IMG/VR virus record: IMGVR_UViG_3300034052_000013 | Location: 1-64,000 of that record | Direction: 5' to 3' (one strand) | Length of the DNA: 64,000 bases | Source of the DNA: a virus | Lineage: Duplodnaviria; Caudoviricetes | Shown: positions 22,609 through 41,814 of the stretch, in pieces | How the letters are laid out: each line of letters begins with the position of its first letter | Numbering within the stretch: position 1 is the first letter of the stretch | Notes under the pieces: model-generated | Told to the model about the DNA's origin: nothing | What the model saw: only the letters and a program-made list of their open reading frames with translations | Databases searched by the model: none | Position numbers and translations under genes: made by a program

Positions 22609-25077
22609 ATGGGAATTAATAGATATGATAAACCAACAGATATTAATTACATACAAACGTATGTAGATCAGTATGTACCTCTTCCATTTGAAGCGATGCG
22701 TGAGAATGCTAAATATAGAGCTGTACAAGCTGACGCTGTACAAAAAGATTTAGACGCTCTTCAAGCTGAAACAGGTAAAAGGTTAGACCCTTTAGATACA
22801 GGTTTAAACAGAGAGTATATAATAGCTGTTAATAAAGATATTAAAGAAGCGTATGATGCTGTTGGAGGCGATGTTATTAAACTTAGACAATATGCAAAAG
22901 ACAAAGCTGCAGAAGTTAAAGGTTTTTATGAATATGGTCCAGGTTCTATTGGTGTGAAAACTGTAGAAGAAAAAAAAGCTTGGGAAGAGGTTGTTAAAAA
23001 AGGTGAAATGGATGCTGCTTATGTAGAACGAGCAAGTGAAGTTTCAGATGCTCTTTATCAAAAAAATAATGCAATGTTAGGTGGGGAAGCTTGGGAAGCT
23101 CCTATGGCCTATAAAAATATAGATATCTCTAAAAAAGGTACTGAAGCTAATCAACTAAAAGAGAGTTCACGAGAATCTTGGGGAGCTTTTGTTGATGGTA
23201 TTTCAGGTGACCCTACAGGTAAATATATCTCAGATGTTAAGAATGGTTATAAGAGTGTTTCAGAACAAAGGGTTTATGATTGGTTTAAAAGTTCAATTTA
23301 CCAAGATGCAGATTTTGATAATAAAGTTAGAGCTCACTATACATTAGCTACAAAAACAGCTGAAGTAATGGGTAAAGATTTTTATAAAGAGTCTGGTATT
23401 GTTCCTAAAGACCATAAGGGTAATATTATACCTAACCCAACTGACTACGATTATTATACAGCTTACAAAGACCAGATGTTTATGGAAACTATACAAGGGT
23501 TTGTGAAAGCAATTCCTCATAGTGAGACTACACAATCGGGTTCTGTAAAAGAGACTGCAGAACAAACTGCAAAAGGTACAAAAAAAGGTACTGAATATAG
23601 TACACCTTTTAGTGTAATGAGTACAATACCTTTAAAAAATCCAGGATACGACCAAGATGTTGTTGACAATCCTGATGAAGCTTCTGCTAAAATGGGGGAT
23701 AAGGCTAGTAAAACTACAACTACTTTTACAGATGGTGTAGCGACAATAATGTCTAAAACATCTTTTTTTAAAAATGTTGGGCAAAAAGATGCTAAACAAA
23801 ACTTTCAAAATGCAGTTAATGCTTATATTAAAAATAATAATTTAGAAAGTGATAAAGGTTCTGCAGAAACAAATATGAAAATCTTTATGGGTAAATTAGT
23901 AGGTGGAGGCCCTAAAGCAGAGGCTGCTGCAATTGCTATGGGATTTACTAAAGAAGGGGTAAAAGAGTTAAAACAAACTGCAAAAAATATGTGGAATGAA
24001 GAGGTTAATGCTAACTATCAATTAATGAAAGCTTTAGTGCCAAATCTTCCAGAAGATTATGCTGCTATACTTAAACAACAATGGCAAGCCTACACAACAC
24101 AAGGTCTTTCTGTGAATGCAAACCACAATAATGTAAGTTTCTTACCTAAAGTAAACACTCCAGAGTATAATAAACTTCAACCACAAGTTAAACTTATTAC
24201 TGCTATCGCTCATGGTGATGAAGATGAGATAGAGAAGTTATTTGAAAAATACGAATCAACAGAAGCTAATGGGGCGGAAATTAACATCGGTTTTGCAAGA
24301 CGAATTAGTGAAACTGTTGCAGAGAATATGGCAGCAACTAAAAACCTTAATGTAGAACAACCTTTTACTAATTATATTCCTGTAAGTAATGACAACACAT
24401 CTCATGATGCAGGACAAGCCGTTCTGAAAGATTTTAATAAATTTATTAAAAAAGAAGGGGATAAAATTTGGAATAATGAAACTGTAGATGTTTTATTAAC
24501 AGATGGTACAGTTAAAACAGTTAAGGAGTACTATGAAGGTATATACGGAACTGCGGCCAAAGCTAAAGAAACTTTTTATAAAGATCTTGAAAAAAATGAT
24601 TTCACTTTTGGTGGGAAAGTTCAAGATGGTTTAGTTTTTAAATTAGGTAGTGGTATTTCTTTTAAAATGGATGAATCTTCTAGTTTTAACTTTAACACAG
24701 GTATCATAGATCCGATAGCTAATATAGAAATGCAAGTAAAAAGTCAACTTTCAAATGTTAAAGCGAGAAATGGGATGTGGGTAGACCCTAACTATCAAAT
24801 CACTACACAAATTGATAAAAGTGACAAGGGTCATACCGTTGCTAATATCACCGCTGCTTTAAAAGGTTCAGACGGTAAGTTCCACTACATACCAGCTCAA
24901 GAGGCTGAGAATTATTTATTTGAAATGGAAAAATTAAATTCAGGTCTAATGATAGTACCCCCTTCACAAGAAGGTGCAGGTGGTTATATGGTAACACAAC
25001 CAAATGGAGACCACCATGTATATAGTAAATTAGAAGATGCTAAAGCAGCTTTAACACAAATTTATATTAATAAATAA
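22609..25077 (+). CDS. ejected cargo/internal virion protein
   Basis: N-terminal YIQTYVDQYVPLPFE; helical; no Cys; position in the cargo cluster. Confidence 0.6.
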   Translation: MGINRYDKPTDINYIQTYVDQYVPLPFEAMRENAKYRAVQADAVQKDLDALQAETGKRLDPLDTGLNREYIIAVNKDIKEAYDAVGGDVIKLRQYAKDKAAEVKGFYEYGPGSIGVKTVEEKKAWEEVVKKGEMDAAYVERASEVSDALYQKNNAMLGGEAWEAPMAYKNIDISKKGTEANQLKESSRESWGAFVDGISGDPTGKYISDVKNGYKSVSEQRVYDWFKSSIYQDADFDNKVRAHYTLATKTAEVMGKDFYKESGIVPKDHKGNIIPNPTDYDYYTAYKDQMFMETIQGFVKAIPHSETTQSGSVKETAEQTAKGTKKGTEYSTPFSVMSTIPLKNPGYDQDVVDNPDEASAKMGDKASKTTTTFTDGVATIMSKTSFFKNVGQKDAKQNFQNAVNAYIKNNNLESDKGSAETNMKIFMGKLVGGGPKAEAAAIAMGFTKEGVKELKQTAKNMWNEEVNANYQLMKALVPNLPEDYAAILKQQWQAYTTQGLSVNANHNNVSFLPKVNTPEYNKLQPQVKLITAIAHGDEDEIEKLFEKYESTEANGAEINIGFARRISETVAENMAATKNLNVEQPFTNYIPVSNDNTSHDAGQAVLKDFNKFIKKEGDKIWNNETVDVLLTDGTVKTVKEYYEGIYGTAAKAKETFYKDLEKNDFTFGGKVQDGLVFKLGSGISFKMDESSSFNFNTGIIDPIANIEMQVKSQLSNVKARNGMWVDPNYQITTQIDKSDKGHTVANITAALKGSDGKFHYIPAQEAENYLFEMEKLNSGLMIVPPSQEGAGGYMVTQPNGDHHVYSKLEDAKAALTQIYINK

Positions 25078-25084
25078 GAAAAGT

Positions 25085-28000
25085 ATGTTAGGAGAAGACC
25101 CAATTATAATCCCTAAAGAAGAGGGAGATAAAATAGCACAGCAAAATATAGATGCTATAAGAGCTGCACAACTTCAACAAGATAGAGGTTTTAGTTTCTT
25201 ACATGCACCACAAAATGTAAAAGGTGCTAGTGACACTAGATTAGAAAATTTATACGAGGCTGGTATCAACCCTCAATTAGCTTTATTTGATGACAACTAT
25301 GATGTCAACCAACAACTTTATGATAGACAAAGTTGGGGGGAAGCTTTAGGTACTGCTGTTGGTGGTGGTATTGTTAAAGGTGCTTTAACTTTAGGTGAAA
25401 CTGTAGGGTATTTAGGTGCTGTATGGGATTATGATAATTTAGTAGGTGCAACTTCAGATTTAGATGAGGGTGTTACTAATGCTTTATCTGATACTATGAC
25501 AGAGTGGAAAAAAGAATTTGATGAAGCTAATCCAATTTACTCACAAGGAACAGGTGATGCAGGTTGGTGGATGCAAGGTATTCAATCTACAATAGATTCT
25601 GCAGTAGGTTTTGGTGTTCCTGGTGGGGCTATAGCAAAAGGTATAGGGTTAGCTGTAAAAGCATTAGCAAATCCAATTGTCCGTGAAACCGTTAAGAATG
25701 TTGGTACATCTTTACTATTAAATAGAGTGGAGTCTCAAATGATGGGTAAAGAATTGTATAATAACACAATGCAAAAAGCTTTAGCTGAAGGTTTAGATTA
25801 TTCAGAAGCTAGTCGTATTGCCCAAGAAAAACAACAAGAGTTTATGGTTAGAAACTACTCTAATACACTTTTTAATGCTGTGGGGTTAAGTAAAGCTTTA
25901 CGTAATTCTTATATGTTAAAAGGTGGAGCTGAAAAAGCTCTTAAATATGGTTGGGTAAAAGAGCAAACTTTAAACGCTTTTTCAGAGTCTTTAGAAGAAG
26001 GTGCTTCAGGTTTTTTACAAACTGAATCTGAAAGAGATGCAGATTTAGAATTAGGTATGAGAAAATCTGATGGGTCTAGTATGCTTGGTAGAGTTGGGGA
26101 CTATGTATCTTCTGCTCAAGGTATTACTGAAATGACTTTTGGTGCTATGGGTGGACCTTTCCAACATGGTCTTACAAGAGCTATTGGTGGTATGAATGAA
26201 GCTTACAATAAGAAAGTGGGCAACACATCTTTTACAGAAGAAGCTCCTACACAGTCTTCAGCAACTGTTGCTAAACCTAAATCTACAGTTACTAACCCAG
26301 GAGATTTAAAAGAATATTTACAAAAAAAACACCCAGGTTTAGAAGATGCAAAACTAGAACAAGTTATATCAGGTCAACTTAATGATGAAGCTCTTGAGAA
26401 ATCTAAAGCTGAATGGGAGAAAAAGAATACTCAATGGGAAGACCATAAAACTAAAAATAAAGATTATTATGAAGAGCAAGAGAAACTTGCTAAAGAAAAA
26501 GAAGAATACTCACTTTGGGAAAAGCGTAAGACAGATTTTGAAAAGAAACAACGTTCAAAAGAGCAGATGGATAAGACAGGAACTATTGCTCAAACAACTG
26601 AAGAGATTTCTACTTTTTTAAAAAATGATGTTAAACTTGAGCAAGAGTATCAACAAGCTTTAAAAGAGGGAGATGATATAAAAGCTAAAGATATTGAAAA
26701 TCAAAGATTTGAAACAATGTTTTTACGACATGCTCAAAAAGAGTCTGTGTTTAGAGATGGGGCTAAACCAGATGGGTCTTTACAATCAGCTTTAGAAGAA
26801 CATATAGCTAAAGGTAAAGAAGCAAATGCTACAGTAGAAGATAAAGCTGCTGCTGTTAAAGCTCAAACATTCTTAGATAAATTACCTGCATACAGAGATA
26901 TGTATAAAAAAATTAGAAAGAATAATCCAGGACTTGAGGATTATGCTTTTAGATTACTTGCTCGTAAAGAAAGTGTGGACAGTGTAATAGAACAATTAAA
27001 TGCAGAAGTAGAAAAAGCTAAAGTTGATATTGCTAAATCTGTAGCAAATACTATGGGAGTTACAGTATCTCCTTTAGAAACAAAAATTATAGAACTTAAT
27101 CAAGAATTAGTAGCGTTAAAAGAAATGAAAGAGGACGCACTAAGAAAAGGTAATATGGAAGCTTTAAGCTTATTTGACAAACGTGTTGAAAAAGTTGAAG
27201 CTTTAAAAAAACAAACTGAAGAGTTGAGAGAGCAAGATTCAAATAAATTATCTGCTGCTGATATACAAGAAGTTAATAAACGTGTTGCTGAACAAAAAGA
27301 TTATCTTGATAAAGTTAAAGCTCGTACAGATGCTTTAGTAGCTTATGATGCTATCAGTTCTGCATATAGTAGAGTTGTTGATGGAAGTTTAGCTAAGACT
27401 GTTGAAAAAGAACGTGTAGAACATATTAAAGAGTCTATTGAACAAATGTCAACAGGTTCTGAAGTACTTAAAGTGCAACGTCTTTTAGACAATCTAAAAG
27501 TGAACACCTCATCAAAAGTTAAATTAGAAAAACAATTTAAAGCTAAAAAAGAAACTTTAACTAAAGCAAAAGAAGTTGCTGAAAAAGCTTATGAACAAAA
27601 GCAACAACAAGTAGAAGCTTTTAAAAAGAAAAAACAATCTTTAGCAGATGATAAAAAACTAAGAGTTAAAAGAATAAAAACACTTGAAAAAGCTTTAAAA
27701 AATTATCAAGATAAACCAGGATACGAAGAAGCTGTATCTTATGCTTTAATGGAACTTCAAGAACTTCAAGAACAAGCTCCGGATTATAAAGCTGAACAAC
27801 TTCTTATAGAAGCAGGGATTCTAGAATTAGAAGCAGAATTAGAAAATTTAAATTCTAAATATACATTTGATTTTAAAGCTGCTTTAGAAAAAGCTGCTAA
27901 AAAAGAACACCTGTCTCCTAGTGAAGCTGATGGTGTTGCAAATGCTACTGGAAATACTGCAGGAAATACAATGGCTGCAGGTGTTAGATCACAAACAGAT

Positions 28001-30163
28001 TCCCAAAATAATCAAAAAGCAGAACGTGGTACTGTTATACATGGTACTGCAAAAGGTGGACTTACAGAAAGTGAAGTTCCAACTGCTCCTACAAGAAGTG
28101 TTGCTTATGTTTCTCACTCAGGAGATAAAGGTAATAAAACTTTAAATGAAGATGAGGTTATTGGAGATTGGTTAGAAACTACAAAAGATCTTAATAAAGA
28201 AGGTACTGTTTTAGAAATGCAACCTATAACATCTTCAAAACCATATCATACTGATGAAGAAGTTGCAGCTATAACTTTATTTAAAAAAGTTTCAAAAAGA
28301 AAAGTGAAAAACCCTCTTACAGAAGAAGAGGTAAAAGTTTTGAGACACTTGCCTATGACATTTGTTTTCAAAAAAGATGGTGAAGTTATTATGCATAATG
28401 GTCACCCTGTTGTAGGGAATGTACCAAGAGGTAAGACTCATTCAGATTTAGTTGAAAGAGGTATGATGGTACAGAAGCATTTAAATGAAGGTGTTTATAC
28501 AACAACTGTAACTAAGGTTCATCAAGGAATATTTAAAGTTGAAGAAGACGAAACTTCACAAGCTTTTTCAGGACATATTAAAGATGTTTTTGGAGATGTT
28601 ACATTAGCTATTTCAGACGGTCAAAATTTATATACAAACTTTTCAAGCAATGGTCATACAAAAGCTGAGATTAATGCTTCAAAATCTACTCCAGGTTTTA
28701 CTTATGCTATAGTTCGTACTGCTAATGGTACATTATATCCAATGAGATTAAATCTAAGAAAGTTAGATATGATTGAAAGTAAAGCTCTTGCTACAGCTGT
28801 GGCTCACATTGCATCAGGTACAGCACCAAATGCAGAGATAAAAGATGTACCAGGTTTTGCTGGGTTATCTTACTTACAACTTATAAACCTACTAGTTTAT
28901 GAAGGTTCTAATACAGTAACTTCAAGTTCACATTTTCATATAGATTTAGTTAATAAAGTATTAAAGATAAACGACAATGAAATACCTTTTACTGATGTTA
29001 AAAAGAACTTAAGTGCTATTGAAGACTATGTTTCTAATATGTATCGTACAGTTCGTTCTGACGGATTAAACACAACATTTGAAAAAATGAATTTAGGTAT
29101 TAGTGACTCTTTTACTTGGAAAGGTAAAGAAGTTAAATATAATGCTAACTATAATGAATTCCTATATGGTGATGTTGTTCAAAATGAACATGGTGTTAAG
29201 ACAGGTGTATTAAGTACGAATGCTATAAAACAACCTAATGGTGCTGTGTTTATTCAACCTTATGTAGAATATAAATCTCCTGATTTAATCAAACCCCCTA
29301 AGAAAGAAGTAGCTACACCTAAGACTGAAGCTGCTCCAGTTAGAGAAGAATCTTCTGATGTAAACCAAGAGCAAATTATTTCATCTAAGATTAAAGGTTA
29401 TCAAGACACTGTTACAAACTCTTCAGATCCAATAATTATAGCTGAAGCTTTACGTGATATGTTAACTTATTTTGAAAGTTTAGACAGTCAAGCCTTGGAT
29501 ACAATAATAGTTGATACCGTATCTTTACCAGATATTGAAATCCCTACGCTTAAAGATTATATAGAATTCCTTTCGTCAAGAGGGGCTAAGTTAAGTTCTT
29601 TAAATGTCACTGCTGAAGAATATAACATCTCAGAAGGGACACCTCATGAAACTCTTACAGGAATGCAGATTATATCAAGAGGTGTTCATCGAGGTGGAAA
29701 ATTAATCATTAAAGGTGAAGCAATCAACTATCCAAATGCTGTTAAAGAAGTTAAATCTGTAGAAGAGATAGTTGAAACCACTAGTCAAGAAACTTCACAA
29801 GAATTTGTAGGGCCTTTTACTAACCCTCTAATTAGAGAGTTTGTTAATGAAACTTTAACTACAGGTTATCCAGGTGCTTTACAATCTAAAGCTTTTGAAA
29901 ACCTTTCAGAAGAGGATAAAGATATTGTTATGCAAAAACTTTCAGACCCGTTAGCTGAACCTTTTGAAAACATCACTAAACCTAAAGAAGTTGAAAAAGT
30001 TGTTGAAAATACAGTTGAAGAAGAGGTTGAAGAATTTGAAATACCAGCTTCTGAAAATAGTGTAGGTTTACCAACTTCTCAGACTGAAGAAGATAACGCT
30101 GCGATGTGTGGAAAAGGTGTTACAAAAAAACCTACAGTTAAAAGGGGTGTTAAGAAGCTGTAA
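25085..30163 (+). CDS. giant internal virion protein preceding the vRNAP
   Basis: 1692 aa; Gly-rich hydrophobic N-terminal segments and a long coiled coil; first of the three giant genes typical of crAss-like phages. Confidence 0.65.
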   Translation: MLGEDPIIIPKEEGDKIAQQNIDAIRAAQLQQDRGFSFLHAPQNVKGASDTRLENLYEAGINPQLALFDDNYDVNQQLYDRQSWGEALGTAVGGGIVKGALTLGETVGYLGAVWDYDNLVGATSDLDEGVTNALSDTMTEWKKEFDEANPIYSQGTGDAGWWMQGIQSTIDSAVGFGVPGGAIAKGIGLAVKALANPIVRETVKNVGTSLLLNRVESQMMGKELYNNTMQKALAEGLDYSEASRIAQEKQQEFMVRNYSNTLFNAVGLSKALRNSYMLKGGAEKALKYGWVKEQTLNAFSESLEEGASGFLQTESERDADLELGMRKSDGSSMLGRVGDYVSSAQGITEMTFGAMGGPFQHGLTRAIGGMNEAYNKKVGNTSFTEEAPTQSSATVAKPKSTVTNPGDLKEYLQKKHPGLEDAKLEQVISGQLNDEALEKSKAEWEKKNTQWEDHKTKNKDYYEEQEKLAKEKEEYSLWEKRKTDFEKKQRSKEQMDKTGTIAQTTEEISTFLKNDVKLEQEYQQALKEGDDIKAKDIENQRFETMFLRHAQKESVFRDGAKPDGSLQSALEEHIAKGKEANATVEDKAAAVKAQTFLDKLPAYRDMYKKIRKNNPGLEDYAFRLLARKESVDSVIEQLNAEVEKAKVDIAKSVANTMGVTVSPLETKIIELNQELVALKEMKEDALRKGNMEALSLFDKRVEKVEALKKQTEELREQDSNKLSAADIQEVNKRVAEQKDYLDKVKARTDALVAYDAISSAYSRVVDGSLAKTVEKERVEHIKESIEQMSTGSEVLKVQRLLDNLKVNTSSKVKLEKQFKAKKETLTKAKEVAEKAYEQKQQQVEAFKKKKQSLADDKKLRVKRIKTLEKALKNYQDKPGYEEAVSYALMELQELQEQAPDYKAEQLLIEAGILELEAELENLNSKYTFDFKAALEKAAKKEHLSPSEADGVANATGNTAGNTMAAGVRSQTDSQNNQKAERGTVIHGTAKGGLTESEVPTAPTRSVAYVSHSGDKGNKTLNEDEVIGDWLETTKDLNKEGTVLEMQPITSSKPYHTDEEVAAITLFKKVSKRKVKNPLTEEEVKVLRHLPMTFVFKKDGEVIMHNGHPVVGNVPRGKTHSDLVERGMMVQKHLNEGVYTTTVTKVHQGIFKVEEDETSQAFSGHIKDVFGDVTLAISDGQNLYTNFSSNGHTKAEINASKSTPGFTYAIVRTANGTLYPMRLNLRKLDMIESKALATAVAHIASGTAPNAEIKDVPGFAGLSYLQLINLLVYEGSNTVTSSSHFHIDLVNKVLKINDNEIPFTDVKKNLSAIEDYVSNMYRTVRSDGLNTTFEKMNLGISDSFTWKGKEVKYNANYNEFLYGDVVQNEHGVKTGVLSTNAIKQPNGAVFIQPYVEYKSPDLIKPPKKEVATPKTEAAPVREESSDVNQEQIISSKIKGYQDTVTNSSDPIIIAEALRDMLTYFESLDSQALDTIIVDTVSLPDIEIPTLKDYIEFLSSRGAKLSSLNVTAEEYNISEGTPHETLTGMQIISRGVHRGGKLIIKGEAINYPNAVKEVKSVEEIVETTSQETSQEFVGPFTNPLIREFVNETLTTGYPGALQSKAFENLSEEDKDIVMQKLSDPLAEPFENITKPKEVEKVVENTVEEEVEEFEIPASENSVGLPTSQTEEDNAAMCGKGVTKKPTVKRGVKKL

Positions 30164-30203
30164 AAATAACTGTTTTAATTAGTTATTATTAAAATTTATT
30201 TCG

Positions 30204-30211
30204 TATATTTG
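30204..30211 (+). promoter_or_regulatory. Bacteroidota-type -7 promoter element TATATTTG
   Basis: 19 nt before the ferritin ATG. Confidence 0.7.
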
Positions 30212-30230
30212 TTAAATTAAAATAATTATT

Positions 30231-30725
30231 ATGTTTATAAGTACCAATATTGAGAAATTGCTTAACTTTCGTATAGAACAAGAAGAAGCTTCAAGTCGTT
30301 TATATTTAGCTATCAGTAAAAAATTAGATTATCTAGGTTTTTTTGGTGCAGGTGAATTGTGGAAAAAATACTCTGATGAAGAGTTAAAACATGCACAATG
30401 GGCTTATGAGTTTTTAGAAAATTTAGATATACTTCCTTGTGTACCTTCTTTGGAAAAACCTGATATGAAAGATATTACATGTATTATAGATGCAATAGAT
30501 TTAAGTTTAGCACATGAAGAGTTGATTACAAAACAGTGTAATGATTTAGCTAAAGCTGCAAATGATGAAGGTGATTATATGACTTTAGGTTTAGCTTTAA
30601 GATTTGTGCAAGAACAAAATGAAGAGCTTGCTAAAATTATGTATTGGAAAAACAGATATGACATTGTAGGAGAAAGTTCTGAAGGTGTTTATATGTTAGA
30701 TAAAGAAATGCAATCTAAAATTTAA
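30231..30725 (+). CDS. ferritin (non-haem FtnA-like)
   Basis: Ferroxidase-type residues: EQEEASSRLY, DEELKHA, HEELIT, FVQEQNEE. Confidence 0.85.
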   Translation: MFISTNIEKLLNFRIEQEEASSRLYLAISKKLDYLGFFGAGELWKKYSDEELKHAQWAYEFLENLDILPCVPSLEKPDMKDITCIIDAIDLSLAHEELITKQCNDLAKAANDEGDYMTLGLALRFVQEQNEELAKIMYWKNRYDIVGESSEGVYMLDKEMQSKI

Positions 30726-30730
30726 TTTTT

Positions 30731-33700
30731 ATGAGTAGACAATTTTGCCCTGTTACAAGTTCTCCTGATTGGATTAATCATGAGAGTCTTGTTAAATACC
30801 CTTATACATCTTGGATTGCTAATAAAGGTAATCCTATGAACTTAGCTCCTAATGGGGCTAATAGTGTTTTATTTGAAGATTTAAAAAAAAGTCTGTCAGA
30901 GAAAGTTTCTAAAAATGAATTTTTAAAATTTACCGACTTACACGACAACCCTTCAATTCAACAAACTATTTTTAATAAACAAGGCAAAGTTAAGAAATAT
31001 GACTATAATGTAGCTTTAGAAATAATGGTACGTTTAAATAGTGCATATGAAGAAGAGGGTTTTAAATTTCAAGTTACAAAAGACCTAGTTACCCCTACTC
31101 ATTTTAATATTATTGTTTCTAAAATAGAAGATGGAGTCACTACAGAATTACAAAACAATTCAATAGAAAATACTGCTATAATAGCTAAAGCATCTATATT
31201 ATCTAACCCTAAGAGTGAAAATTTACCTAAAGATGAAAATGGTGAAGTTATTCTTAATGAAGAGTCTAAGAAATTAATAGATTTCACACCTAAACAAAAT
31301 AGTGATGAAATTCTTAAGTTAAACTTATCTGCAGCATTAAGTCAAAATTTTGACCCAGAAGTTTATTTTGCTAACCTGTATGAAAATAAGGTTGGTGCAA
31401 CTCTTTCAGCTAATGCTCCTTTAATAACTTTAGGGTTTAAATCTGGTATGGTTGTAGGTGAACCTGCTTTTGATATGCAAGTTCAAAAACTTTTAACACT
31501 TACAGCAGAATTACAAAATGTTACCATAGTTCAAAGTTCTAATACCGGATCTACATTAACTTCTAGATATACAGAAGGTCTTACAAAAAACCCTCTTAAT
31601 GTTCAAGAAGAGTTGGCAACTTTAAGAAAAATTTTACCTAATGTTCCTATTACTGTGCGTAATGGTTTACTTCATTTAGGTAATGGTGAAGTTGCTGAAG
31701 GTACATTTGCAGATGGTGTAATTACAATCTTTACTGGTGGGAGTGCTGGTGTAGGTTTACATGAAGCTTTCCATGCAGTTAGTACAGGAATTTTAACTGA
31801 GAAACAAAGAAATATTGTTTATAATGAGTTAAGAGCTTTAAACCCTAGTTTATCAGACGAACAAATTGAAGAAGAACTTGCTGAGAAATTTAGAGAGTGG
31901 TATTTAGGAAAAGGTGATATGAAAGATATGCCAAGTTTAATTAAATACTTATACAACATTTGGAAAGATTTAGTTATGTACTTTACTAACAGTAGTGAAG
32001 TTGATAAACTATTCAATAGAATACGTAATGGAAAATATGCTAGTAGTAAATTTACAACTAATCAAAAACAATTGTTCTCTAAATTAGGTATATATAATGA
32101 TATGCAAGTGGAGATTGTAGAAGCATTAACATATTTATTTGTAGAGAAAGCTGGTTTTCGTTTAACAGAAAAAGATTTAGATTTAGATTCACCTAAAGCT
32201 GCTAAGTTTTCAGAACAAGTGTTTGTTGAAGTTCATAATGCTATTATAGATATAATTGAACAAGCTGAAGAGAATGGAGAAGATGAAGAGTTAATAGACC
32301 GTCTTTACTTTATAGTACAAAAAGGTGAAGATGGTGCAGAGGACAATTGGACACCTTTAAAACAAATTGTCAAATATGAGTTAATGAAATACTCAATTGG
32401 TTTTGAAGATAAAAAATCTAAAGCTGCAAAAGAATCTGCTGAGAAAGCTGCTGCAACTGTTGAAGAAGATCAAAAAGTTAAAGGTGGTCTTAATATAGGT
32501 AACGCTGTTAATTTTGAAGGTAAGCAAAATGCTACAGGACAAACTAAATTGTTAATAGCAATGTTACAAGATTCTAAAGAACCTTCTAAATACTTTGGTG
32601 AATACTTACCTAAGTTAGCTAATTATGATAAAACTTATAGAGCTCTTGAAGATGGTTTAGCTAATGTTACTGGTGGTAAGATTGTTGATGGTAAACCTCA
32701 AAGTATTCGTGAAGCTTTGTTTGAAAGACTTAAAGAAATCTCACAAGAACACCCACAGTTGCAAGAGTTAGTCCATAATTTTGAAACAAAAAAAGTTTCT
32801 GATTTTAAACAGAGACAATTTTTTACAAATTTTCATAAAACAAAAGTTAATTATAGGAGCTCCTTATATCGTAAAGATAATGAAAGTTCTTACACTGTTA
32901 AGAAAGGGGATGCTGACCAAAATAATAAAAGTAGAATTATACGTGCTGAATGGAGTAATGATTTTATTTTAAAACATGTAAACTCAAAAGGTCAAGTTTT
33001 TAATGTAGATATTTTAGAAGCTTCTATTAAAGCTTTTGAAGATGCTTATAAATACTATTCTAAAAAAGAAACAACTCTAGAAAATGTAGAGCAAAGTTAT
33101 AACACTGCTATTGAAAGACTTACAGAATATTTAAACAATTTAGGTATTGAAGTTTCTGAAGGAGGCCTTGCTAAATTTGTCACACAACAATACGGAGAAG
33201 ATTTAAAATATCAAATGAGTAGAGCTTTTGAAAAAATTTCTAAAGCTTTAAGTGGAACTAAAGTTAAAAATACTTTAGTTAATAATATTAAAAATGGTAT
33301 AGACCCACATAAGAATTTTATAACTGACCAACGTGTGTTTTTAGAACTAGCAGAAGTTGAAGTTCCTTTTAGAAAACTTCCTACATCTAATGTTATTAAA
33401 GGTTCTGACAATAAAGATTACTGGACAAAATCTTTAAATAACAATATGACAAAAACATTACAACTTTGGAAAAACAACCCTGAGTTGATAAAACAACTTA
33501 ATGATAAACAATATCATAAAGGTTCTCATTGGTTACCTATGTTATATGAAAACAATCTTTTAAGAGACCAAGTAGAAGTAACTGTTTGGTTATTTAATAA
33601 ATTAGAACAATCTTCTGACGTAGGTGTAGACTATTCAGATTTAATTGAAAAAGATGAGTTTATAGAAAGACTTAACGACACATTATATGGTCGTGTAGGC

Positions 33701-36700
33701 AAAGCTTCACACTCAACATTAACTCTTGCAGATAAATCTTTATGGTATAATTTTGAGGGTTTCCCTACAGAAGTATTATCTAATTTTCAAAAAGAAGGTT
33801 CTAAAGGTATCAGTGAAAAGGGTGTAGATATATTTTATAAATATGCTTTAGCTGAAGCTGAAAAAATTTCTTACAATTTAAGAAACAGTAATGATTATAC
33901 AGAATACAAAGGTACAGAATCTTTTTGGTTTCCTGAATTAAACTATGACTCTAAGTTTGCTAAAGATAATGCATTATACAATGCAGATTTTTCAATCAAT
34001 ATTAATGCTGAAGAAGCTATTAAAGAGATGATTGCTGACACTCTTGTTAAACGTATTGCTGAAGTTAGACAAAAGCTTACAGATAATGGAGTTCTTTTAA
34101 CTAACACTGAGAAAGGTAAGAAAGTAGAGTACCTTTTAGGTGTAGATAAATCTATCCAAGCAAAATATTCACTAGGGTCTGCTGCCTCTAAACAAGCAAT
34201 AGATAATATGATTGGAGATTTTGTTATGAATAATATGATAGCTAATATTGAAACTACAATGTTATTTACAGGAGACCCTGCTTTTTATAAAGATTTAGCA
34301 AAACGTACTCCAGCTATTAGTTCTACTGGTACAGATTATATACCTGATGAAACTGCAGGTATTCCTGAAAATTATAATTTAGCAATCTCAACAGAACCAA
34401 TTTCATCTACAATCTATGAAGATTCTTTAAAGAAAGCTTTTATAAAAGATGTTAAAAAACGTAACCCTAAAATATCTAAAGAGGATTTAAATAAAAAGGT
34501 AGATAGTTTAATGAAACCTTATTTAAATATGAAAACTTCAGATGGTGGGGGTTTAATTACACCTAAACGTTGGAGAGATATTATGAGAGCTGTAGGTGTT
34601 TTTAATGATGAGAAACACGGACCTTTATATGATAAGTTAATTGAAGATTTTAGTGCAGAAGGTTTAACTGATTTAATGAAACAAATGGGTTTTCCTTATG
34701 GTAACCCTATTAAAGGTCACCATTTTGAATTAATACAAAAAGAGGATTCAGAAATTGCTCAACCTTTATTTTTAAAATATTCTCAGTTTGTAGCTTGGGC
34801 ACCTGTTGTTAAAGGTACAATATTAGAAGATATCGTTAAGAATATGGAAGCTAATAATATTGATGAACTAGTTCCACCTTCAGCTGTTAAAGTTGGTATG
34901 GAGTCTTTAGTAGACTTTGATATGTTATCGACTTTAGGTGTTAAATTAAAACCTATAACTTTATCTAATATGGGTTGGAAACTACAAACAGAAACACCTT
35001 CTAAATATGAGAAAAAAGGAGAGTCTTTAGTAGGTTCTCAACCACAAAAGAACATCTTAGTAGGTATTTTAGGTAAGAGTTTTGTTATAGATGGTGAAAC
35101 TGTCTCAGGAGAAGAGATGTTTAAACGTCTACAAGAAATTCAAATAAGACTTTCTGACAAAGGTTTAGCTAACACTAGACGGTCATGGGGTATGAAACCT
35201 GTTGAGGTTACAATAAAAGGAGAGACAGTCGAGATATATGACGATAAGATTCATAGACGTAAACACTTATATGATGAATTAATAGAGGAGTTCAGAACAG
35301 AAGGCACTCCTGAAAATATTATAGAAGCTCTTGAAATGGGGGTGCCATTTGATGCACTTTTCCAAGGGGTTACTAAAATACAAAATAAGTTAAGAGGTAA
35401 AGTTAAAAATAATGCAGTTCAAACACAAGCACATGGTGGAGCTTTTATACAAATACCTAACACAGGTTTTGCTAAAAAACAAGGTTTTACTAACCATGCT
35501 GAACTTGTAGTTGCCAGTAGAAATGAACTTATCTACTTAAAAGATGTAGACCAGATTCATGGTCCTCATATAGATAAATCAGGTAAAGTTATTCCAGGTG
35601 ATGTTTTCTTACCTTATAGTGTAATTAAAAAAATACCTAACATAGACCAATTGATTAAAGAAGGAAAAGTTACAGGTAAATGGTTACGTGAACAATTGGG
35701 AGAAGGTGTATTAGATGTTATTGGATATCGTATACCTAACCAGGGTTTATCTTCTATTGACACTTTAGAAATTGCAGGTATACTACCACCTTTCATGGGA
35801 GATAGTATTGTTACATACACTGAAATTGTTGGTAAGACTGGATCTGACTTTGACATTGACAAAATGTATGTGCTTATGCCAAATACTGTATATAATAAAA
35901 ATACAGGAAAAGTAGAAATAGTTACTCCTAATACAAGTTCTAAAAAAGGTTTAGAAAATTTACGTATTAAACTTTGGAAAGCTGTATTAGAAAATCCAGA
36001 ATCTTTTGGTGAAGTTATGACCTCTGTTGATGCAGATTGGTTAGCTGAAGATGCTTATTATGTAGAAGCTTTATCTATTCTTAAAAGTGACAAATCACTA
36101 TTAAAAACTTTAGGTTTTGAGACAATTGAACAATTTACTACAGCTGAGAATAAAAAACAAATAGCTAGAAAAGCTCTTTCTAATAGAAAATATAAAGCTT
36201 TAGAATTTGCTTCTCCTTTAGAACAGGTACGTTTAAAGAAAGTAAACTTAGCTGGTAAAGCTGGTGTTGCTCAAAACGCTAACCATATCGTACATATTCC
36301 CCTTGCTCAACAAGCACATTTAGGATTTAATGGTAATATTACAAATGTTGTAAAAGGTACTAACACTTTAGATTCAATTTTAAATGCTGATAAAGAAGAT
36401 ATTGCACAAGTAACTTCAGCATGGGTAACAGCTTATGTTGACTGTGCTAAAGACCCTTACATTGCATTATTAAACAATAATACAAAAACAAGTAACACTG
36501 TATCTTTAATGGTACGTATGGGGATTTCTCCTGAATACGTTAACAGATTTATGACACAACCTATAATTGTAGATTATATAAATGAACTTTACAATCAAGA
36601 TAGTAGATTTAAAACTTTTGAAAAAGAAAGATTAAACTATTACTCTTTTAAAGTAGATTCTACAGGGTCTTTAGTTAAAACTAAAAAAACAGGTCGTCCT

Positions 36701-38467
36701 GACATTGTTAACAGAGTGTTGTCAAAATATGAGGATGTGTCTAAAATTAAAACAATAATTAAAGAAATTACAACTGTTCAAGGTTTAGAAGCAGAACTTT
36801 TAAATCCTACTAAAAACCAAGTAGAGATATTTAAACAATTTTTAATATTTCAAAAATATGGTTCAGATTTAAGTAAAGTTGTAAAAGCAAGTCGTTATGA
36901 TGTTACTGCAGGTGAAAAAGACTCAGCTTCAGCTTATGCTCAACAACAAGTGTTTGCAGAGGCAATGTCTCTTGAGACTATTACTAATGTTGAAAACTTA
37001 TTTGAGGATACTGCTTTAGGAACTTATAAAAGAAACTCTGCAGATTTTCTAAACAGAGTGTTGTCAAGAGAGTTTTTAACAGATAGTAAAGGTGCAATTG
37101 TTGCTTTAGAGGAATATAAGAAAGCAAAAGGTATAGAATATCTTACAAATTATACAGAAATTAATGAGGTTCTTAAAGCTCTTAAAGCTTATTCACATTC
37201 TGCATCTTACATGACTCAAAGAAATGGTAGACAAATTCAACAAATGTTCTTTGGTGAGAACACTATGGTACACAAACTTACAAAACTTAAAGAGATGTAT
37301 CCTGAAAGTGTTTTAATTGACTCTTTAGTAAGATACATTGAAAGAGAAGACCCTAAAGCTCCTATGTTTATATATTTACCTTCATCTAAAATTACAGATG
37401 TTAATGACATTAACACTTTATTAGGAGACTTTGAAGAATTGTATAGTGAATTTGGAGATAATGTAATTGAAGATGGTTATACTGTAAGAAACTTCTTAGA
37501 TGATTTAGCAGCTATGTCTTACTACACTTCAGGGTTTAACAGGTCTTTTAATTCATTTTTTGAAATTTTACCAGCTTCTTACTTAGCAGGTAAATTAGCT
37601 GGGCAAAGTCCAAATAAAAGTTTCTATAATAATTATGATATACATAATAGTTCTAATGTCTACAACAGATTACGTTCTTTAGATTCTATGGAGAATTTCT
37701 CAGACCAATTTTTTAGACATAATTTTGGTAATGATGGGGTTATGCCAGTTATAAACTTATATTCGACATATGATTATAATACTTTTACAACAAGTTTAAA
37801 TACTGCTAAATTAACTACATATGGTATAAAACCTTATCTAAATTTTACAATGGGTTTTACTATTGAAGATGAAAATTTACCTGAACTTTTAATAGCAAAT
37901 ACTTCTCCTGTAGATCCAAGAACAGGTGAAAAAGGGGAAGTTAAAATTCCTGTTGCATATATGTCTATTGTAAATAACTTTAATGATACTGTGCACGGAT
38001 ATAAATATGCTGGTAAACGTGGTAATACACATTACTTTACAGCTGTTACTCCATTAGGTTTAAATAATAAAGGTTATAAAATATTAGAGTATCAAGTTGA
38101 TAAATCTGTAATAAGTGCTGTTAACCCTACTGTTCAAGGTTTACCTCTTGAAGTGTTAGCCTCAGTACAAAAAGAAAATAGTTATGGAGACTCTGCTATA
38201 AATTTTGGAAAAAGAGTTGATATTGACGAAGAAAGTTTTACCTTTGACAATATTAAAAATAAAACCTTTAAACTTAAAGAGATTATTAAAGATAATCAAA
38301 CTTACTATCAAGGTGTAGTAGAGTATGTAAAAGCTGGTCTTACTTATACAAGAACTGTAACAGAGCTAATGTACCCAAATAAAGAAGAAGCTTTAACAGC
38401 TTTAGAAGAAAAACTGAGAAAACACTCAGTAGATATTGTAGATGATGTAATAACTAATATGTGTTAA
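30731..38467 (+). CDS. virion RNA polymerase (double-psi beta-barrel) with N-terminal zincin-like domain
   Basis: Catalytic GSDFDIDK (35846-35860) preceded by YRIPNQG; HEAFH (31760-31774) plus downstream EEELAE. DFDID is the known motif of crAss-like vRNAPs such as phi14:2 gp66. Confidence 0.9.
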   Translation: MSRQFCPVTSSPDWINHESLVKYPYTSWIANKGNPMNLAPNGANSVLFEDLKKSLSEKVSKNEFLKFTDLHDNPSIQQTIFNKQGKVKKYDYNVALEIMVRLNSAYEEEGFKFQVTKDLVTPTHFNIIVSKIEDGVTTELQNNSIENTAIIAKASILSNPKSENLPKDENGEVILNEESKKLIDFTPKQNSDEILKLNLSAALSQNFDPEVYFANLYENKVGATLSANAPLITLGFKSGMVVGEPAFDMQVQKLLTLTAELQNVTIVQSSNTGSTLTSRYTEGLTKNPLNVQEELATLRKILPNVPITVRNGLLHLGNGEVAEGTFADGVITIFTGGSAGVGLHEAFHAVSTGILTEKQRNIVYNELRALNPSLSDEQIEEELAEKFREWYLGKGDMKDMPSLIKYLYNIWKDLVMYFTNSSEVDKLFNRIRNGKYASSKFTTNQKQLFSKLGIYNDMQVEIVEALTYLFVEKAGFRLTEKDLDLDSPKAAKFSEQVFVEVHNAIIDIIEQAEENGEDEELIDRLYFIVQKGEDGAEDNWTPLKQIVKYELMKYSIGFEDKKSKAAKESAEKAAATVEEDQKVKGGLNIGNAVNFEGKQNATGQTKLLIAMLQDSKEPSKYFGEYLPKLANYDKTYRALEDGLANVTGGKIVDGKPQSIREALFERLKEISQEHPQLQELVHNFETKKVSDFKQRQFFTNFHKTKVNYRSSLYRKDNESSYTVKKGDADQNNKSRIIRAEWSNDFILKHVNSKGQVFNVDILEASIKAFEDAYKYYSKKETTLENVEQSYNTAIERLTEYLNNLGIEVSEGGLAKFVTQQYGEDLKYQMSRAFEKISKALSGTKVKNTLVNNIKNGIDPHKNFITDQRVFLELAEVEVPFRKLPTSNVIKGSDNKDYWTKSLNNNMTKTLQLWKNNPELIKQLNDKQYHKGSHWLPMLYENNLLRDQVEVTVWLFNKLEQSSDVGVDYSDLIEKDEFIERLNDTLYGRVGKASHSTLTLADKSLWYNFEGFPTEVLSNFQKEGSKGISEKGVDIFYKYALAEAEKISYNLRNSNDYTEYKGTESFWFPELNYDSKFAKDNALYNADFSININAEEAIKEMIADTLVKRIAEVRQKLTDNGVLLTNTEKGKKVEYLLGVDKSIQAKYSLGSAASKQAIDNMIGDFVMNNMIANIETTMLFTGDPAFYKDLAKRTPAISSTGTDYIPDETAGIPENYNLAISTEPISSTIYEDSLKKAFIKDVKKRNPKISKEDLNKKVDSLMKPYLNMKTSDGGGLITPKRWRDIMRAVGVFNDEKHGPLYDKLIEDFSAEGLTDLMKQMGFPYGNPIKGHHFELIQKEDSEIAQPLFLKYSQFVAWAPVVKGTILEDIVKNMEANNIDELVPPSAVKVGMESLVDFDMLSTLGVKLKPITLSNMGWKLQTETPSKYEKKGESLVGSQPQKNILVGILGKSFVIDGETVSGEEMFKRLQEIQIRLSDKGLANTRRSWGMKPVEVTIKGETVEIYDDKIHRRKHLYDELIEEFRTEGTPENIIEALEMGVPFDALFQGVTKIQNKLRGKVKNNAVQTQAHGGAFIQIPNTGFAKKQGFTNHAELVVASRNELIYLKDVDQIHGPHIDKSGKVIPGDVFLPYSVIKKIPNIDQLIKEGKVTGKWLREQLGEGVLDVIGYRIPNQGLSSIDTLEIAGILPPFMGDSIVTYTEIVGKTGSDFDIDKMYVLMPNTVYNKNTGKVEIVTPNTSSKKGLENLRIKLWKAVLENPESFGEVMTSVDADWLAEDAYYVEALSILKSDKSLLKTLGFETIEQFTTAENKKQIARKALSNRKYKALEFASPLEQVRLKKVNLAGKAGVAQNANHIVHIPLAQQAHLGFNGNITNVVKGTNTLDSILNADKEDIAQVTSAWVTAYVDCAKDPYIALLNNNTKTSNTVSLMVRMGISPEYVNRFMTQPIIVDYINELYNQDSRFKTFEKERLNYYSFKVDSTGSLVKTKKTGRPDIVNRVLSKYEDVSKIKTIIKEITTVQGLEAELLNPTKNQVEIFKQFLIFQKYGSDLSKVVKASRYDVTAGEKDSASAYAQQQVFAEAMSLETITNVENLFEDTALGTYKRNSADFLNRVLSREFLTDSKGAIVALEEYKKAKGIEYLTNYTEINEVLKALKAYSHSASYMTQRNGRQIQQMFFGENTMVHKLTKLKEMYPESVLIDSLVRYIEREDPKAPMFIYLPSSKITDVNDINTLLGDFEELYSEFGDNVIEDGYTVRNFLDDLAAMSYYTSGFNRSFNSFFEILPASYLAGKLAGQSPNKSFYNNYDIHNSSNVYNRLRSLDSMENFSDQFFRHNFGNDGVMPVINLYSTYDYNTFTTSLNTAKLTTYGIKPYLNFTMGFTIEDENLPELLIANTSPVDPRTGEKGEVKIPVAYMSIVNNFNDTVHGYKYAGKRGNTHYFTAVTPLGLNNKGYKILEYQVDKSVISAVNPTVQGLPLEVLASVQKENSYGDSAINFGKRVDIDEESFTFDNIKNKTFKLKEIIKDNQTYYQGVVEYVKAGLTYTRTVTELMYPNKEEALTALEEKLRKHSVDIVDDVITNMC

Positions 38468-38469
38468 TT

Positions 38470-41400
38470 ATGGCAAGTTGTCCTTATAAAAAAGATCCTG
38501 ATTGGATTTCATTAGTAGCAAAACATGGTGAGCTTGAAGCTTATTACTTATATGTACATAACGGGTATAAAATACCTACAAATGTATCTGAGGTTCCACC
38601 TCAACATACTTGGGCTAAAGAAGATGAAGAGTTAGTACAAAATTTAAAAGATATTACTCAACTTCGAGAAGAAATACTTATAAGTTTAGTTACCAAAGCA
38701 AACATCTTTTCAAAACAAGAGGAATTTACAGGTAACCTTAAAACTTTAATAAAAGATTTAGTTGAAGCAGATATTCAAAAAAGTATTATTATTTTCTTAG
38801 ACAATACTAATAAAAAGATGGAAGCTTTAAAACAAAGAATGAGAGACAATTCTGATGACATTGAAGCTCTTAAACTTATTAAAGATTTCTCTACAACATA
38901 CGAATTAGTTTATGATATGGGTAGAGTGTTGGCAAAATCTGATAAAACCTCTTCTAAAAAATTAAAAAAGTATATTAATAAAATAAAAGGTGACCTTAGT
39001 GAACTTAATGACATGTATATCAGATACTCTAGGGATATTCTTGCAAAAAGTTTAGCTCAACACTCAACTGTTATTCGTCATGAATACAAAGTAAAGTTTG
39101 CAAAAGAGTTTAAAGATAATCATGATAAAAAATCATTTAAAGATGAAGCTACTTATGAAGAAGCTAAATTTAAATATGTAGATGAAAACATTACACGATT
39201 ACACGACCAAATACAAAAAGAGGAAGAGCAAAATATTAAAAGATTATTAATAACAGCTCCTGAAGATATTAGTGAAATAGTTAAGTCTATATCAGACCCT
39301 AGAAATATTAAAGACCATATTTTACAATTGGCTGTTCTTACTTTAGATAATGCAGACCATAGAGCATATTCACAATTTATCGAAGATGAAAGAACTGTTT
39401 TAGAAAAGTTTAAAAACTTTCAAGGAAAACGTGGAGCTGTGATGACTGACCAAACTAAATTGTACAATGGTATTATTGAAAAGATAGATGGTGTTGAAAC
39501 ACAATACTATGTGAGAAAACATTACAGCACTTATTATGAAGCTTTAAATAGATTTTTTAAAGAGCGTAAATCTCTTATAGATGAAAGAGATTATTATGAA
39601 CATAAAGACCTTGAAAAATATAATGAACTTGTACAAAAAGAGCAAGAGTTGGTGACAGAATTTAGAGATAAATGGTTCGATATGCCTTCTGATGCAAAAA
39701 GTAATACAGATTTTTGGCATGCAATTAAGTATGATAAATGGGTTAAACAAGAATTTGTTAACCCTCAATTCACAAATATGTCTGCAGATACTAAACAAAT
39801 GTACGATTTTTTAATTGAGTTTAACCAGGAGTCAGATAAATTAGTTCCATATCGTGCACGTCTAGGGTACAGATTACCTTCTGTAGATAAAACTAAAAGT
39901 GAAAAGATTCAAAGTTCTTTAAAGAAAGAAGGTTCTGTTTGGGGAAATATTAAACGTAGTGTACAACAAACTTTAGGTCTTGTTGAAAGTGATACAGAGT
40001 TTGGGGATTTAGAAACTTCAGTTGATAGTGAAGGTAATAAGATAATAAAAGTTATTCGTGATGTTGGTGGTAAAGCTTATGAACACATAGCAGTACCTTT
40101 TAGACAACCAATTAGTGCACAAAACCAATCTTATGATTTAGTTGGTATGGCTTTATCTAATAGATATGTCTCACTCAACTATGCTGAGAAATCGAATATA
40201 AAGGTCGAATTAGAGGTTTTAAAAGATATTACAGCAGATAGGACTGTAGTTAAACGAAAAGGTCTTAAAACGCAAGTTATACATGCTTTTAATTATGAAA
40301 AATTAACGGGTGAAGAGTTGTCAAATATTCCAGACACTCTTAAAGGTATAGAAAGTAAATCTCATAAACGATTAGTGTCACTTTTAGAAGACAGGTTATA
40401 TGGTAAACATAATGTGCCTACAATGATTGGTAGTGTGTCTATGGATAAAGTTGCTTCATTACTTACAGGTTGGTCAGCTGATTTAATGTTGATTACAAAT
40501 GTTTGGGGTGCTGTTGCAAATACATTGAATGGAAAAACTATGAACTTTTTAGAAGGTACTAGACGTATTCACTATGATAGAAAAAACTTAAGACATGCAG
40601 AGGTTTCTTATTGGAAAGATATGGGTAATATTGCAATGGATTTTGAAGAACTTTCTCCTAATAGTATTACCAATATTTTAATGCAAGAGTTTTTAGACTC
40701 TTCTATAAATTTTGACCCCCTTTCTAATAACTTAGTTAAAGATAATAAAGTTAAAAGGTTATTCAATAAAAAAACTTTACATGCTGCTAATACAATGGCA
40801 GAACATTATATTCAAGGCACACTTATGTACGCTGTTTTAGACAATTATAAAATATTAAAAGACGGTAAATATATAGATGCTAAAGGTAATGTTACTACAA
40901 GAGAAAATGCTTTAACTTTACGTGAAGCTTTTAAAAATGTAAAAGGAAAAGCAACCTTACCAAATGGGTATACTGTAGAAGGTTTTTCACAAAAACAAAT
41001 GGAAGAAGGTTTGTATAAAGAAATTATTCGTAGAAAAATTAAGGATGTCACAGCAGATTTACAGGGTCAATATGACAGTGTAAATAAAGCTGAATGGGAA
41101 CGTATGTTCTATGCTAAATTAGTTTTATTCTTACGTAAATGGGTTATTAGAGGTTCTCAAAGAAGATTTATGGGATTAAAATATGTAACTACAGATTTTA
41201 ATGAGATGAGTAGAGATGATAAATTTTATTCTGAAGCTGCTCAAGAATATAAGGAAGGTACTTACACTACAATGTTTAGATTTTTTAACTCAGCTAGAAA
41301 AAATTTAATCTCTTTAAAAGGGCAAACAGAAACTTTATCAATTGGAGATAAGTGGAAAGATTTGTCTGATTATGAACAAGCTCAAATTAGATCTGCTTTA

Positions 41401-41814
41401 ACTGAAATATTAATTTTATCTGTCACATTTTTAACAGCAAAACTTATTTATGGACTGTCTAAAGGTGATAAGGATGATGATAAAATGTTACTTACAACAG
41501 CTTATTTTTCTAGAAGGTTATTTGGAGAGCTAGTTTTTTACTTACCAATACTAAGCCCTTCAGATGCTTTAAGAACTGTTAGAACCCCTTCAGCTACACT
41601 TTCTACAATTGAAAGTTTAACTAAATTCATTGACCAATTTGTTTTTGAAGATTTATTTGCAGATGAATGGGAGACATATCAAAGAGGTAGACATAAAGGT
41701 GAATCTAAATCTTGGGTGATGTTTAATAAGACATTTAACCCTTTATATAAAAACTATTTAGACAGAGATATAGAAGATTCTGCAAATAGATTATTTAATG
41801 TTGGTGTAAGATAA
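38470..41814 (+). CDS. giant internal virion protein following the vRNAP
   Basis: ~1114 aa from ATG 38470; helical, with a hydrophobic segment near the C-terminus (ILILSVTFLTAKLIYGL); third giant gene. Confidence 0.65.
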   Translation: MASCPYKKDPDWISLVAKHGELEAYYLYVHNGYKIPTNVSEVPPQHTWAKEDEELVQNLKDITQLREEILISLVTKANIFSKQEEFTGNLKTLIKDLVEADIQKSIIIFLDNTNKKMEALKQRMRDNSDDIEALKLIKDFSTTYELVYDMGRVLAKSDKTSSKKLKKYINKIKGDLSELNDMYIRYSRDILAKSLAQHSTVIRHEYKVKFAKEFKDNHDKKSFKDEATYEEAKFKYVDENITRLHDQIQKEEEQNIKRLLITAPEDISEIVKSISDPRNIKDHILQLAVLTLDNADHRAYSQFIEDERTVLEKFKNFQGKRGAVMTDQTKLYNGIIEKIDGVETQYYVRKHYSTYYEALNRFFKERKSLIDERDYYEHKDLEKYNELVQKEQELVTEFRDKWFDMPSDAKSNTDFWHAIKYDKWVKQEFVNPQFTNMSADTKQMYDFLIEFNQESDKLVPYRARLGYRLPSVDKTKSEKIQSSLKKEGSVWGNIKRSVQQTLGLVESDTEFGDLETSVDSEGNKIIKVIRDVGGKAYEHIAVPFRQPISAQNQSYDLVGMALSNRYVSLNYAEKSNIKVELEVLKDITADRTVVKRKGLKTQVIHAFNYEKLTGEELSNIPDTLKGIESKSHKRLVSLLEDRLYGKHNVPTMIGSVSMDKVASLLTGWSADLMLITNVWGAVANTLNGKTMNFLEGTRRIHYDRKNLRHAEVSYWKDMGNIAMDFEELSPNSITNILMQEFLDSSINFDPLSNNLVKDNKVKRLFNKKTLHAANTMAEHYIQGTLMYAVLDNYKILKDGKYIDAKGNVTTRENALTLREAFKNVKGKATLPNGYTVEGFSQKQMEEGLYKEIIRRKIKDVTADLQGQYDSVNKAEWERMFYAKLVLFLRKWVIRGSQRRFMGLKYVTTDFNEMSRDDKFYSEAAQEYKEGTYTTMFRFFNSARKNLISLKGQTETLSIGDKWKDLSDYEQAQIRSALTEILILSVTFLTAKLIYGLSKGDKDDDKMLLTTAYFSRRLFGELVFYLPILSPSDALRTVRTPSATLSTIESLTKFIDQFVFEDLFADEWETYQRGRHKGESKSWVMFNKTFNPLYKNYLDRDIEDSANRLFNVGVR

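Follow-up and report, generated by a model that had tools for sequence, protein, structure and literature searches.

We analysed a window of 64,000 nucleotides (nt) from a tailed-phage genome (Caudoviricetes), positions 1 to 64,000 of the IMG/VR record IMGVR_UViG_3300034052_000013 (82 kb, linear, ~87% complete), and asked how the few cysteines of three giant proteins encoded there, P1, the virion RNA polymerase (vRNAP) and P3, are placed. Between 16 and 44 kb, a block of genes on one strand encodes, in order, a 1440-amino-acid (aa) protein, a 636-aa protein, an 822-aa protein, P1, a ferritin-like open reading frame (ORF), vRNAP, P3 and a 739-aa protein. P1 (1692 aa; 25085..30163, + strand), the first link of the chain proposed below, has a single cysteine, Cys1675, encoded by TGT at 30107..30109 (+), 17 residues before the C terminus. 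vRNAP (2578 aa; 30731..38467, +), the middle link, has three: Cys6 (30746..30748, +), the internal Cys1905 (nt 36443), which is also present in the nearest relative, locus L002, and Cys2578 (38462..38464, +), its last residue. The sole cysteine of P3 (1114 aa from the ATG at 38470; 38470..41814, +), the last link, is Cys4 (38479..38481, +). Each C-terminal cysteine is matched by an N-terminal cysteine in the next cargo protein, so that the proposed partners are P1 Cys1675 and vRNAP Cys6 at the first junction, and vRNAP Cys2578 and P3 Cys4 at the second.

The two smaller cargo proteins, encoded upstream of P1 and lying outside this chain, have no cysteines: the 636-aa protein (20692..22602, +), which matches the small cargo proteins gp45 and gp46 of crAss001 by position, and the 822-aa protein (22609..25077, +). 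Small cargo ORFs in this place are cysteine-free in nearly all related loci. A preliminary description of the window had listed five cysteines in the five cargo proteins, none of them in the two smaller ones, and had noted the tail-to-head correspondence from P1 to vRNAP and from vRNAP to P3; translation of the window's ORFs reproduced every count and coordinate and both correspondences. The five proteins together comprise 6,842 aa, of which five (0.07%) are cysteine, and four of these five lie at junction-facing ends. At the cysteine content of the window's 40 other ORFs (1.25%), ~86 would be expected in the cargo set (Poisson P ~2e-30), while at least four of five cysteines would land in the four end zones that face a junction, each of 18 residues, with a probability of ~6e-8. 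Chance is excluded as the origin of the window's cysteine pattern. The non-cargo neighbours have an ordinary cysteine content, with 15 in the 1440-aa product upstream of the cargo block, a virion structural protein, and 6 in the tail-like 739-aa product downstream.

Using tblastn, we found that vRNAP matches gp66 of Cellulophaga phage phi14:2 with 27.6% identity over residues 586-1718 (E 2e-82). Its catalytic DFDID, an instance of the DFDxD motif, lies at residue 1706, and that of gp66 at residue 1361. By homology, vRNAP is a crAss-type virion RNA polymerase. The P1 and P3 regions were traced by BLAST through 80 loci, and in the window both lie downstream of two small cargo genes; their counterparts are gp47 and gp49 in crAss001 and gp67 and gp65 in phi14:2, respectively. 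Only for crAss001 (PMC10172136) and phi14:2 (10.1101/2020.03.07.982082) is packaging of the cargo proteins in the virion known from mass spectrometry, and P1, vRNAP and P3 of the window are most likely, on the strength of this relationship, packed in the virion and injected. Within its group the window phage is distant, sharing no more than 36% identity with any locus found in a scan of IMG/VR with vRNAP, and a megablast search of phage records gave no match.

A separate feature of vRNAP is a zincin-like HExxH motif (HEAFH) at residue 344 (nt 31760-31774), in the N-terminal extension and just past the first junction. It is kept in loci L005 and L001 (HEGFH, HEAFH). In some other lineages an HExxH motif occurs within the first 250 aa of P3 (L013, L031, L041 and L056).

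Facing ends of separately encoded cargo proteins carry paired cysteines

For comparison we used the 80 IMG/VR loci from the scan with vRNAP. ORFs were called, in eight loci under a TAG-recoded code, the P1, vRNAP and P3 regions were assigned by BLAST, and the cysteines of each module protein were then tabulated. A junction was scored as paired when one cysteine lay ≤20 residues from the upstream C terminus and another ≤15 residues from the downstream N terminus. Where module proteins are encoded separately, they form 96 distinct junctions, and in 94 of these both facing ends carry a cysteine. At the outer ends of the module there is none, either at the N terminus of P1 (0 of 46 distinct ends) or at the C terminus of P3 (0 of 58). 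The count across homologues that the preliminary description had put forward as a check on its proposal thus finds the terminal cysteines conserved, enriched at facing ends and, as set out in the next section, co-varying.

The positions of these cysteines are narrowly confined. N-terminal cysteines occupy residues 3-7, with the addition of residue 13 in L057, which we read as a start-codon miscall, and C-terminal cysteines lie 0-8 residues from the end, the lone outlier among 106 being the P1 of the window at 17 residues. Internal cysteines account for 0.031% of 404,692 module residues, whereas the remaining ORFs of these loci have 0.67%. The terminal cysteine is the only invariant column in an alignment of the last 250 aa of vRNAP (A1), while in an alignment of the first 250 aa of P3 (A2) a Cys-Pro heads the invariant columns, as part of a conserved N-terminal head motif, CPN..(E/D)W..LV. 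Mean column identity in A1 and A2 is only 22-25%. The N terminus of vRNAP (CP....PDWI) was also considered as a possible copy of the P3 head; a P3-head profile matched it at E 0.008 (10.6 bits), a value not superior to those for several other vRNAP heads, and this origin is not established.

Both unpaired junctions belong to a single locus, L053, whose polymerase gene is split by a 1161-aa ORF. Here (L053:7562-19553), the first polymerase piece contains a tail-like '...EDIENCK' at residue 1656 and continues for a further 287 residues; it is followed by the 1161-aa ORF, which is of unknown family, and then by an 871-aa piece with Cys3 and a last-residue cysteine. From this layout, it appears that a cassette bringing its own cysteine-tipped junction was inserted in L053.

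Two further groups of loci depart from the usual form of the module. In human-gut loci L048, L050, L059, L060, L062-L064 and L078, long ORFs appear only when TAG is read as sense (table 15), and the fused P1+vRNAP protein, which has 7 cysteines, still ends in a terminal cysteine facing the 'MIC' of P3. In L070-L072 the depletion of cysteine is relaxed, with 6 to 21 in the polymerase protein, and the junction-facing cysteines between vRNAP and P3 are retained.

Cysteine pairs are lost when the genes are fused

P1, vRNAP and P3 are fused in differing combinations among lineages, which allowed the presence of the terminal cysteines to be compared between split and fused forms. At the junction of P1 and vRNAP, where 65 rows could be scored, the N-terminal cysteine is present in all 46 split vRNAP-bearing proteins and absent from all 19 fused ones. 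At the junction of vRNAP and P3, all 10 fused forms lack the C-terminal cysteine, and it occurs in 60 of the 61 split forms. Proteins in which all three regions are fused (5,472-5,639 aa) have no cysteine at all.

We mapped these states on a FastTree phylogeny built from 77 rows and 684 columns of the polymerase core. Parsimony placed at least five state changes at the first junction and at least two at the second, and the independent pairs of split and fused lineages, 4-5 and 2 in number, respectively, all point in the same direction. One comparison illustrates the exchange at close range: the fused protein of L006 aligns on either side of the junction in L008, its split sister, whose tail and head ('...SENPLTC' and 'MKSCEFK...') are swapped for a cysteine-free stretch of similar length. 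Likewise, L005 and L003, which form the clade sister to the lineage of the window, have fused proteins and lack the pair. What this analysis establishes is how the cysteines are placed, that this placement is conserved and that it co-varies with fusion and fission of the genes.

Cultured phages follow the same pattern

Four cultured phages, crAss001, crAss002, phi14:2 and FpV4, follow the rule. In crAss001, the sole cysteine of gp47 is residue 2339 of 2341, gp50 has Cys5, Cys1334 and Cys2404 in 2412 residues, and the sole cysteine of gp49 is residue 5; gp47, the P1 counterpart, is encoded on the strand opposite to gp50 and gp49. In phi14:2 (L021), Cys1797 is the last residue of P1, gp66 has Cys3 and Cys2179 in 2180 residues, and P3 has Cys3. 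FpV4 gp32 (4,287 aa), a fused form, has its sole cysteine at 4286, facing Cys3 of gp33. Finally, crAss002 gp32 has Cys2019 of 2020 residues, and its gp33, likewise a fused form, contains 'MSC' at the internal Met33, which is probably the true start.

Single terminal cysteines with no obvious partner were also seen in small cargo or ejection proteins, namely FpV4 gp30 (L083; Cys5), crAss002 gp30 (L084; 7 residues from the end) and T7 gp14 (L140; Cys2).

Particular features of the window's first junction

In the window, P1 Cys1675 is followed by a 17-residue basic tail, GKGVTKKPTVKRGVKKL (nt 30110-30163), which contains an A7 run and is unique among the 106 C-terminal cysteines. The cysteine-free linker of the fused relative L005 runs from acidic to strongly basic, and its basic part resembles the P1 tail; given this likeness, the tail may be a piece of fusion linker that was retained. 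The codon after Cys1675 is GGA, and it is conceivable, although only a guess, that the tail arose by stop-loss of a TGA.

Between P1 and vRNAP lies the ferritin-like ORF (164 aa, 3 Cys; 30231..30725, +), which the preliminary description had passed over, assigned to Pfam PF00210 at E 2.5e-19, in which ExxH and other ferroxidase-type motifs can be recognized by eye. Homologues sit in the junction of vRNAP and P3 in six other loci (L013, L031, L051, L074, L025 and L047). In IMG/VR, the neighbours of the 54 closest ferritin loci are other, ordinary genes, none of them cysteine-tipped. We set aside a part for the ferritin in the mechanism because its closest relatives are found in unrelated contexts; from this distribution, the ORF is probably accessory and occupies one of the few spots between genes that tolerate an insert.

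A proposed end-to-end tether of the polymerase cargo

We consider it likely that P1, vRNAP and P3 are joined by their terminal cysteines, most likely through disulfides, into a single thread. In the virion, the C-terminal cysteine of P1 would bond to the N-terminal cysteine of vRNAP, and the C-terminal cysteine of vRNAP to the N-terminal cysteine of P3. The product would be an unbranched thread of ~5,400 residues with short stubs at the joints, and since the cysteines lie close to the ends and leave only such stubs, it would stay effectively linear. The tether would thereby take over the role played by the peptide bond in the fused relatives, hold the three proteins at 1:1:1 and allow the cargo to exit the capsid via the tail sequentially, unfolded and in one chain. 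Having almost no other cysteines would avoid both wrong pairs and closed loops unable to thread. As no phage thiol oxidoreductase was found, we infer that the bond forms after assembly or release; it would then be reduced in the host cytoplasm. The chemistry of the bond, the timing of its formation, its cytoplasmic reduction and its function, which would comprise equal stoichiometry, ordered ejection and release by reduction, are what we infer from the placement of the cysteines. A linked chain of this kind had been suggested in the preliminary description, and it gains support from the conservation and co-variation of the terminal cysteines, from their loss on fusion and from a disulfide with the same signature in cyanopodophage A4, discussed below.

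Predicted folds of the second junction are compatible with such a tether. P3 Cys4 is placed in a 9-residue coil ahead of a two-helix hairpin (mean predicted local distance difference test (pLDDT) score 78), and vRNAP Cys2578 follows two terminal helices (overall pLDDT only 50, last 80 residues 60-82), so that both modelled cysteines of the window would sit in flexible tips beside helices. Co-folding the C-terminal 250 aa of vRNAP and the N-terminal 250 aa of P3 from alignments of 14 rows gave a score of 0.03, which we count neither way.

Several points weigh against this reading. For any crassvirus, the case for a tether is built on the sequence pattern. The independent events are few (4-5 and 2 at the two junctions) and neither sign test alone reaches 0.05, so the weight rests on their perfect agreement. 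In the window itself, the P1 cysteine lies further from the end than any other. No match to thioredoxin, glutaredoxin or DsbA turned up in the 82-kb record, itself 87% complete; Erv gave none either, a result without weight, since its control also missed every control genome. The timing of oxidation is a further problem, given a reducing host cytoplasm and the anoxic guts inhabited by many crassviruses. Finally, the phi14:2 preprint, in which cysteine is unmentioned, suggests that the fused 'polyproteins' are cleaved (10.1101/2020.03.07.982082); cleaved products would be unlinked, which would weaken the claim that linkage is needed.

Among the alternatives, the one that survives best is that the terminal cysteines are not bonded to each other, and that the ends bind, or are recognized by, the capsid, portal, scaffold or a packaging or processing factor, or else aid a non-covalent docking of tail to head. 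It draws on the fact that the bond has never been seen in any crassvirus and on end motifs that are conserved beyond the cysteine itself (a helix and then the cysteine in the tail, CPN..W..LV in the head), which suggest that docking probably exists. However, it leaves unexplained why both cysteines are lost jointly on fusion, why the outer ends are cysteine-free (0 of 46 and 0 of 58) and why each junction has a constant two, and we consider it unlikely.

A tether might also be formed by a metal bridge, with the facing cysteines sharing an ion such as Zn or Fe, perhaps with help from side chains nearby. Any link between two cysteines would be compatible with the pairwise pattern and the co-variation with fusion, and a ferritin-like gene lies in a junction in 7 loci. 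Nevertheless, two thiolates by themselves make a poor metal site, and no His, Asp or Cys is conserved beside the cysteine in A1 or A2, the cysteine being the sole invariant column of A1. In addition, the same signature in A4 corresponds to a disulfide, and the nearest ferritin homologues are mostly found in unrelated contexts. A shared metal ion therefore seems improbable to us.

The idea that the pattern is a by-product of gene-junction signals (translational coupling or start and stop context), of gene calling or of chance in cysteine-poor proteins has next to no prospect of being right, since, even though partner genes are mostly adjacent (median gap 6 nt), it is already refuted by the low chance probability in the window (~6e-8), by the use of both TGT and TGC at the ends in roughly the background ratio, by the persistence of the rule at 12 junctions with 200-6,173 nt between the partner genes, often holding other genes, and in crAss001 with a partner gene on the opposite strand, and by the variable position of the cysteine, 0-8 residues from the C terminus and at residues 3-7 from the N terminus. 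Inteins, native chemical ligation and lipidation were rejected, with no dedicated test, as the ends have neither an intein-sized domain nor a lipobox and the cysteine does not stand at residue 1.

Implications of the proposed disulfide thread

Crassviruses are the most abundant phages of the human gut. The disulfide-linked thread that we favour addresses the problem of how ~700 kDa of polymerase cargo per copy passes in order through a narrow tail. It would explain the free interchange of split and fused gene forms and suggests a redox-controlled release step as infection begins. The sequence rule predicts which ends join and turns the question into simple experiments on the four cultured phages; it also gives annotators of giant cargo ORFs a practical rule by which to set starts and stops and to recognize broken genes.

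A wider proposal, to which we give somewhat less than even chances, is that the device is shared by the whole order Crassvirales. Disulfides would then replace peptide bonds throughout, and, however many genes share in encoding it, the cargo would exit the capsid as one covalent thread without branches, 5,000-7,000 residues long. The active polymerase would be set free once the bonds are reduced in the cytoplasm, and the device of A4 would be an independent one, pointing to a general solution for ordered ejection.

Comparison with known ejection systems

Among the closest known systems are the crassviruses themselves. The gp47, gp50 and gp49 of crAss001 and the gp67, gp66 and gp65 of phi14:2 resemble the window in their gene order after two small cargo genes and in the terminal cysteine pattern, while the window differs in the ferritin-like gene at its first junction and in the 17-residue tail past the P1 cysteine. 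The structural atlas of crAss001 describes five cargo proteins, their partial unfolding on ejection and disulfides in the tail, and is silent on cargo cysteines (PMC10172136). A 2026 review of ejected polymerases lists the ejection proteins of crassviruses as unresolved and calls for structures (PMC13434306).

Depletion of cysteine is also known from Schitoviridae, in which the giant ejected proteins (N4 gp50; DEV gp71, gp72 and gp73), a virion RNA polymerase among them, have 0.00075% cysteine compared with 0.865% in the proteome, a suppression attributed to passage through the envelope (PMC11445570). The window is similar in that its cargo has far less cysteine than the phage's other ORFs (0.07% versus 1.25%). 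In contrast, the Schitoviridae polymerase is one chain for which terminal cysteine pairs have not been described, whereas the depletion in the window spares the junction-facing ends. Neither cysteines nor pairs occur in T7 gp15 and gp16, which indicates that the paired signature is not general to ejection proteins.

The preliminary description stated that no mechanism of this kind had been described. That holds for Crassvirales, for which we found no description of terminal-cysteine linkage in the literature, but not beyond them, as one direct parallel, a structure with such a bond, exists: in cyanopodophage A4 (Anabaena phage A-4L), a disulfide between gp27 Cys1715 and gp26 Cys5 has been resolved in the virion by cryo-electron microscopy (PNAS 2025, PMC12002296). 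In the A-4L genome, gp27 (1,717 aa) has Cys1715 and gp26 (1,114 aa) has Cys5 as their sole cysteines. Another A-4L ejection protein, gp28 (L085; 1,058 aa), has only two cysteines, which form a CxxC at 1036/1039 near its C terminus.

A4 differs from the crassviruses in having one pair and not a chain of two or more, and in lacking an RNA polymerase. The bond is read there as a stabilizer of a ring layer and not as a threading device, and co-variation with gene fusion is not reported (PMC12002296). A phmmer search with A4 gp26-gp29 against all module proteins returned nothing at E 10; as an analogy, the resemblance is one of mechanism only, with no sequence homology. The cysteine signature agrees. 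The two A4 genes are adjacent and encode large ejection proteins that are otherwise cysteine-free, the sole cysteine of gp27 lies 2 residues from the C terminus at the end of a long C-terminal helix (PMC12002296), and, as in the window, the upstream protein presents a cysteine at its C-terminal end to one at the N-terminal end of the downstream protein.

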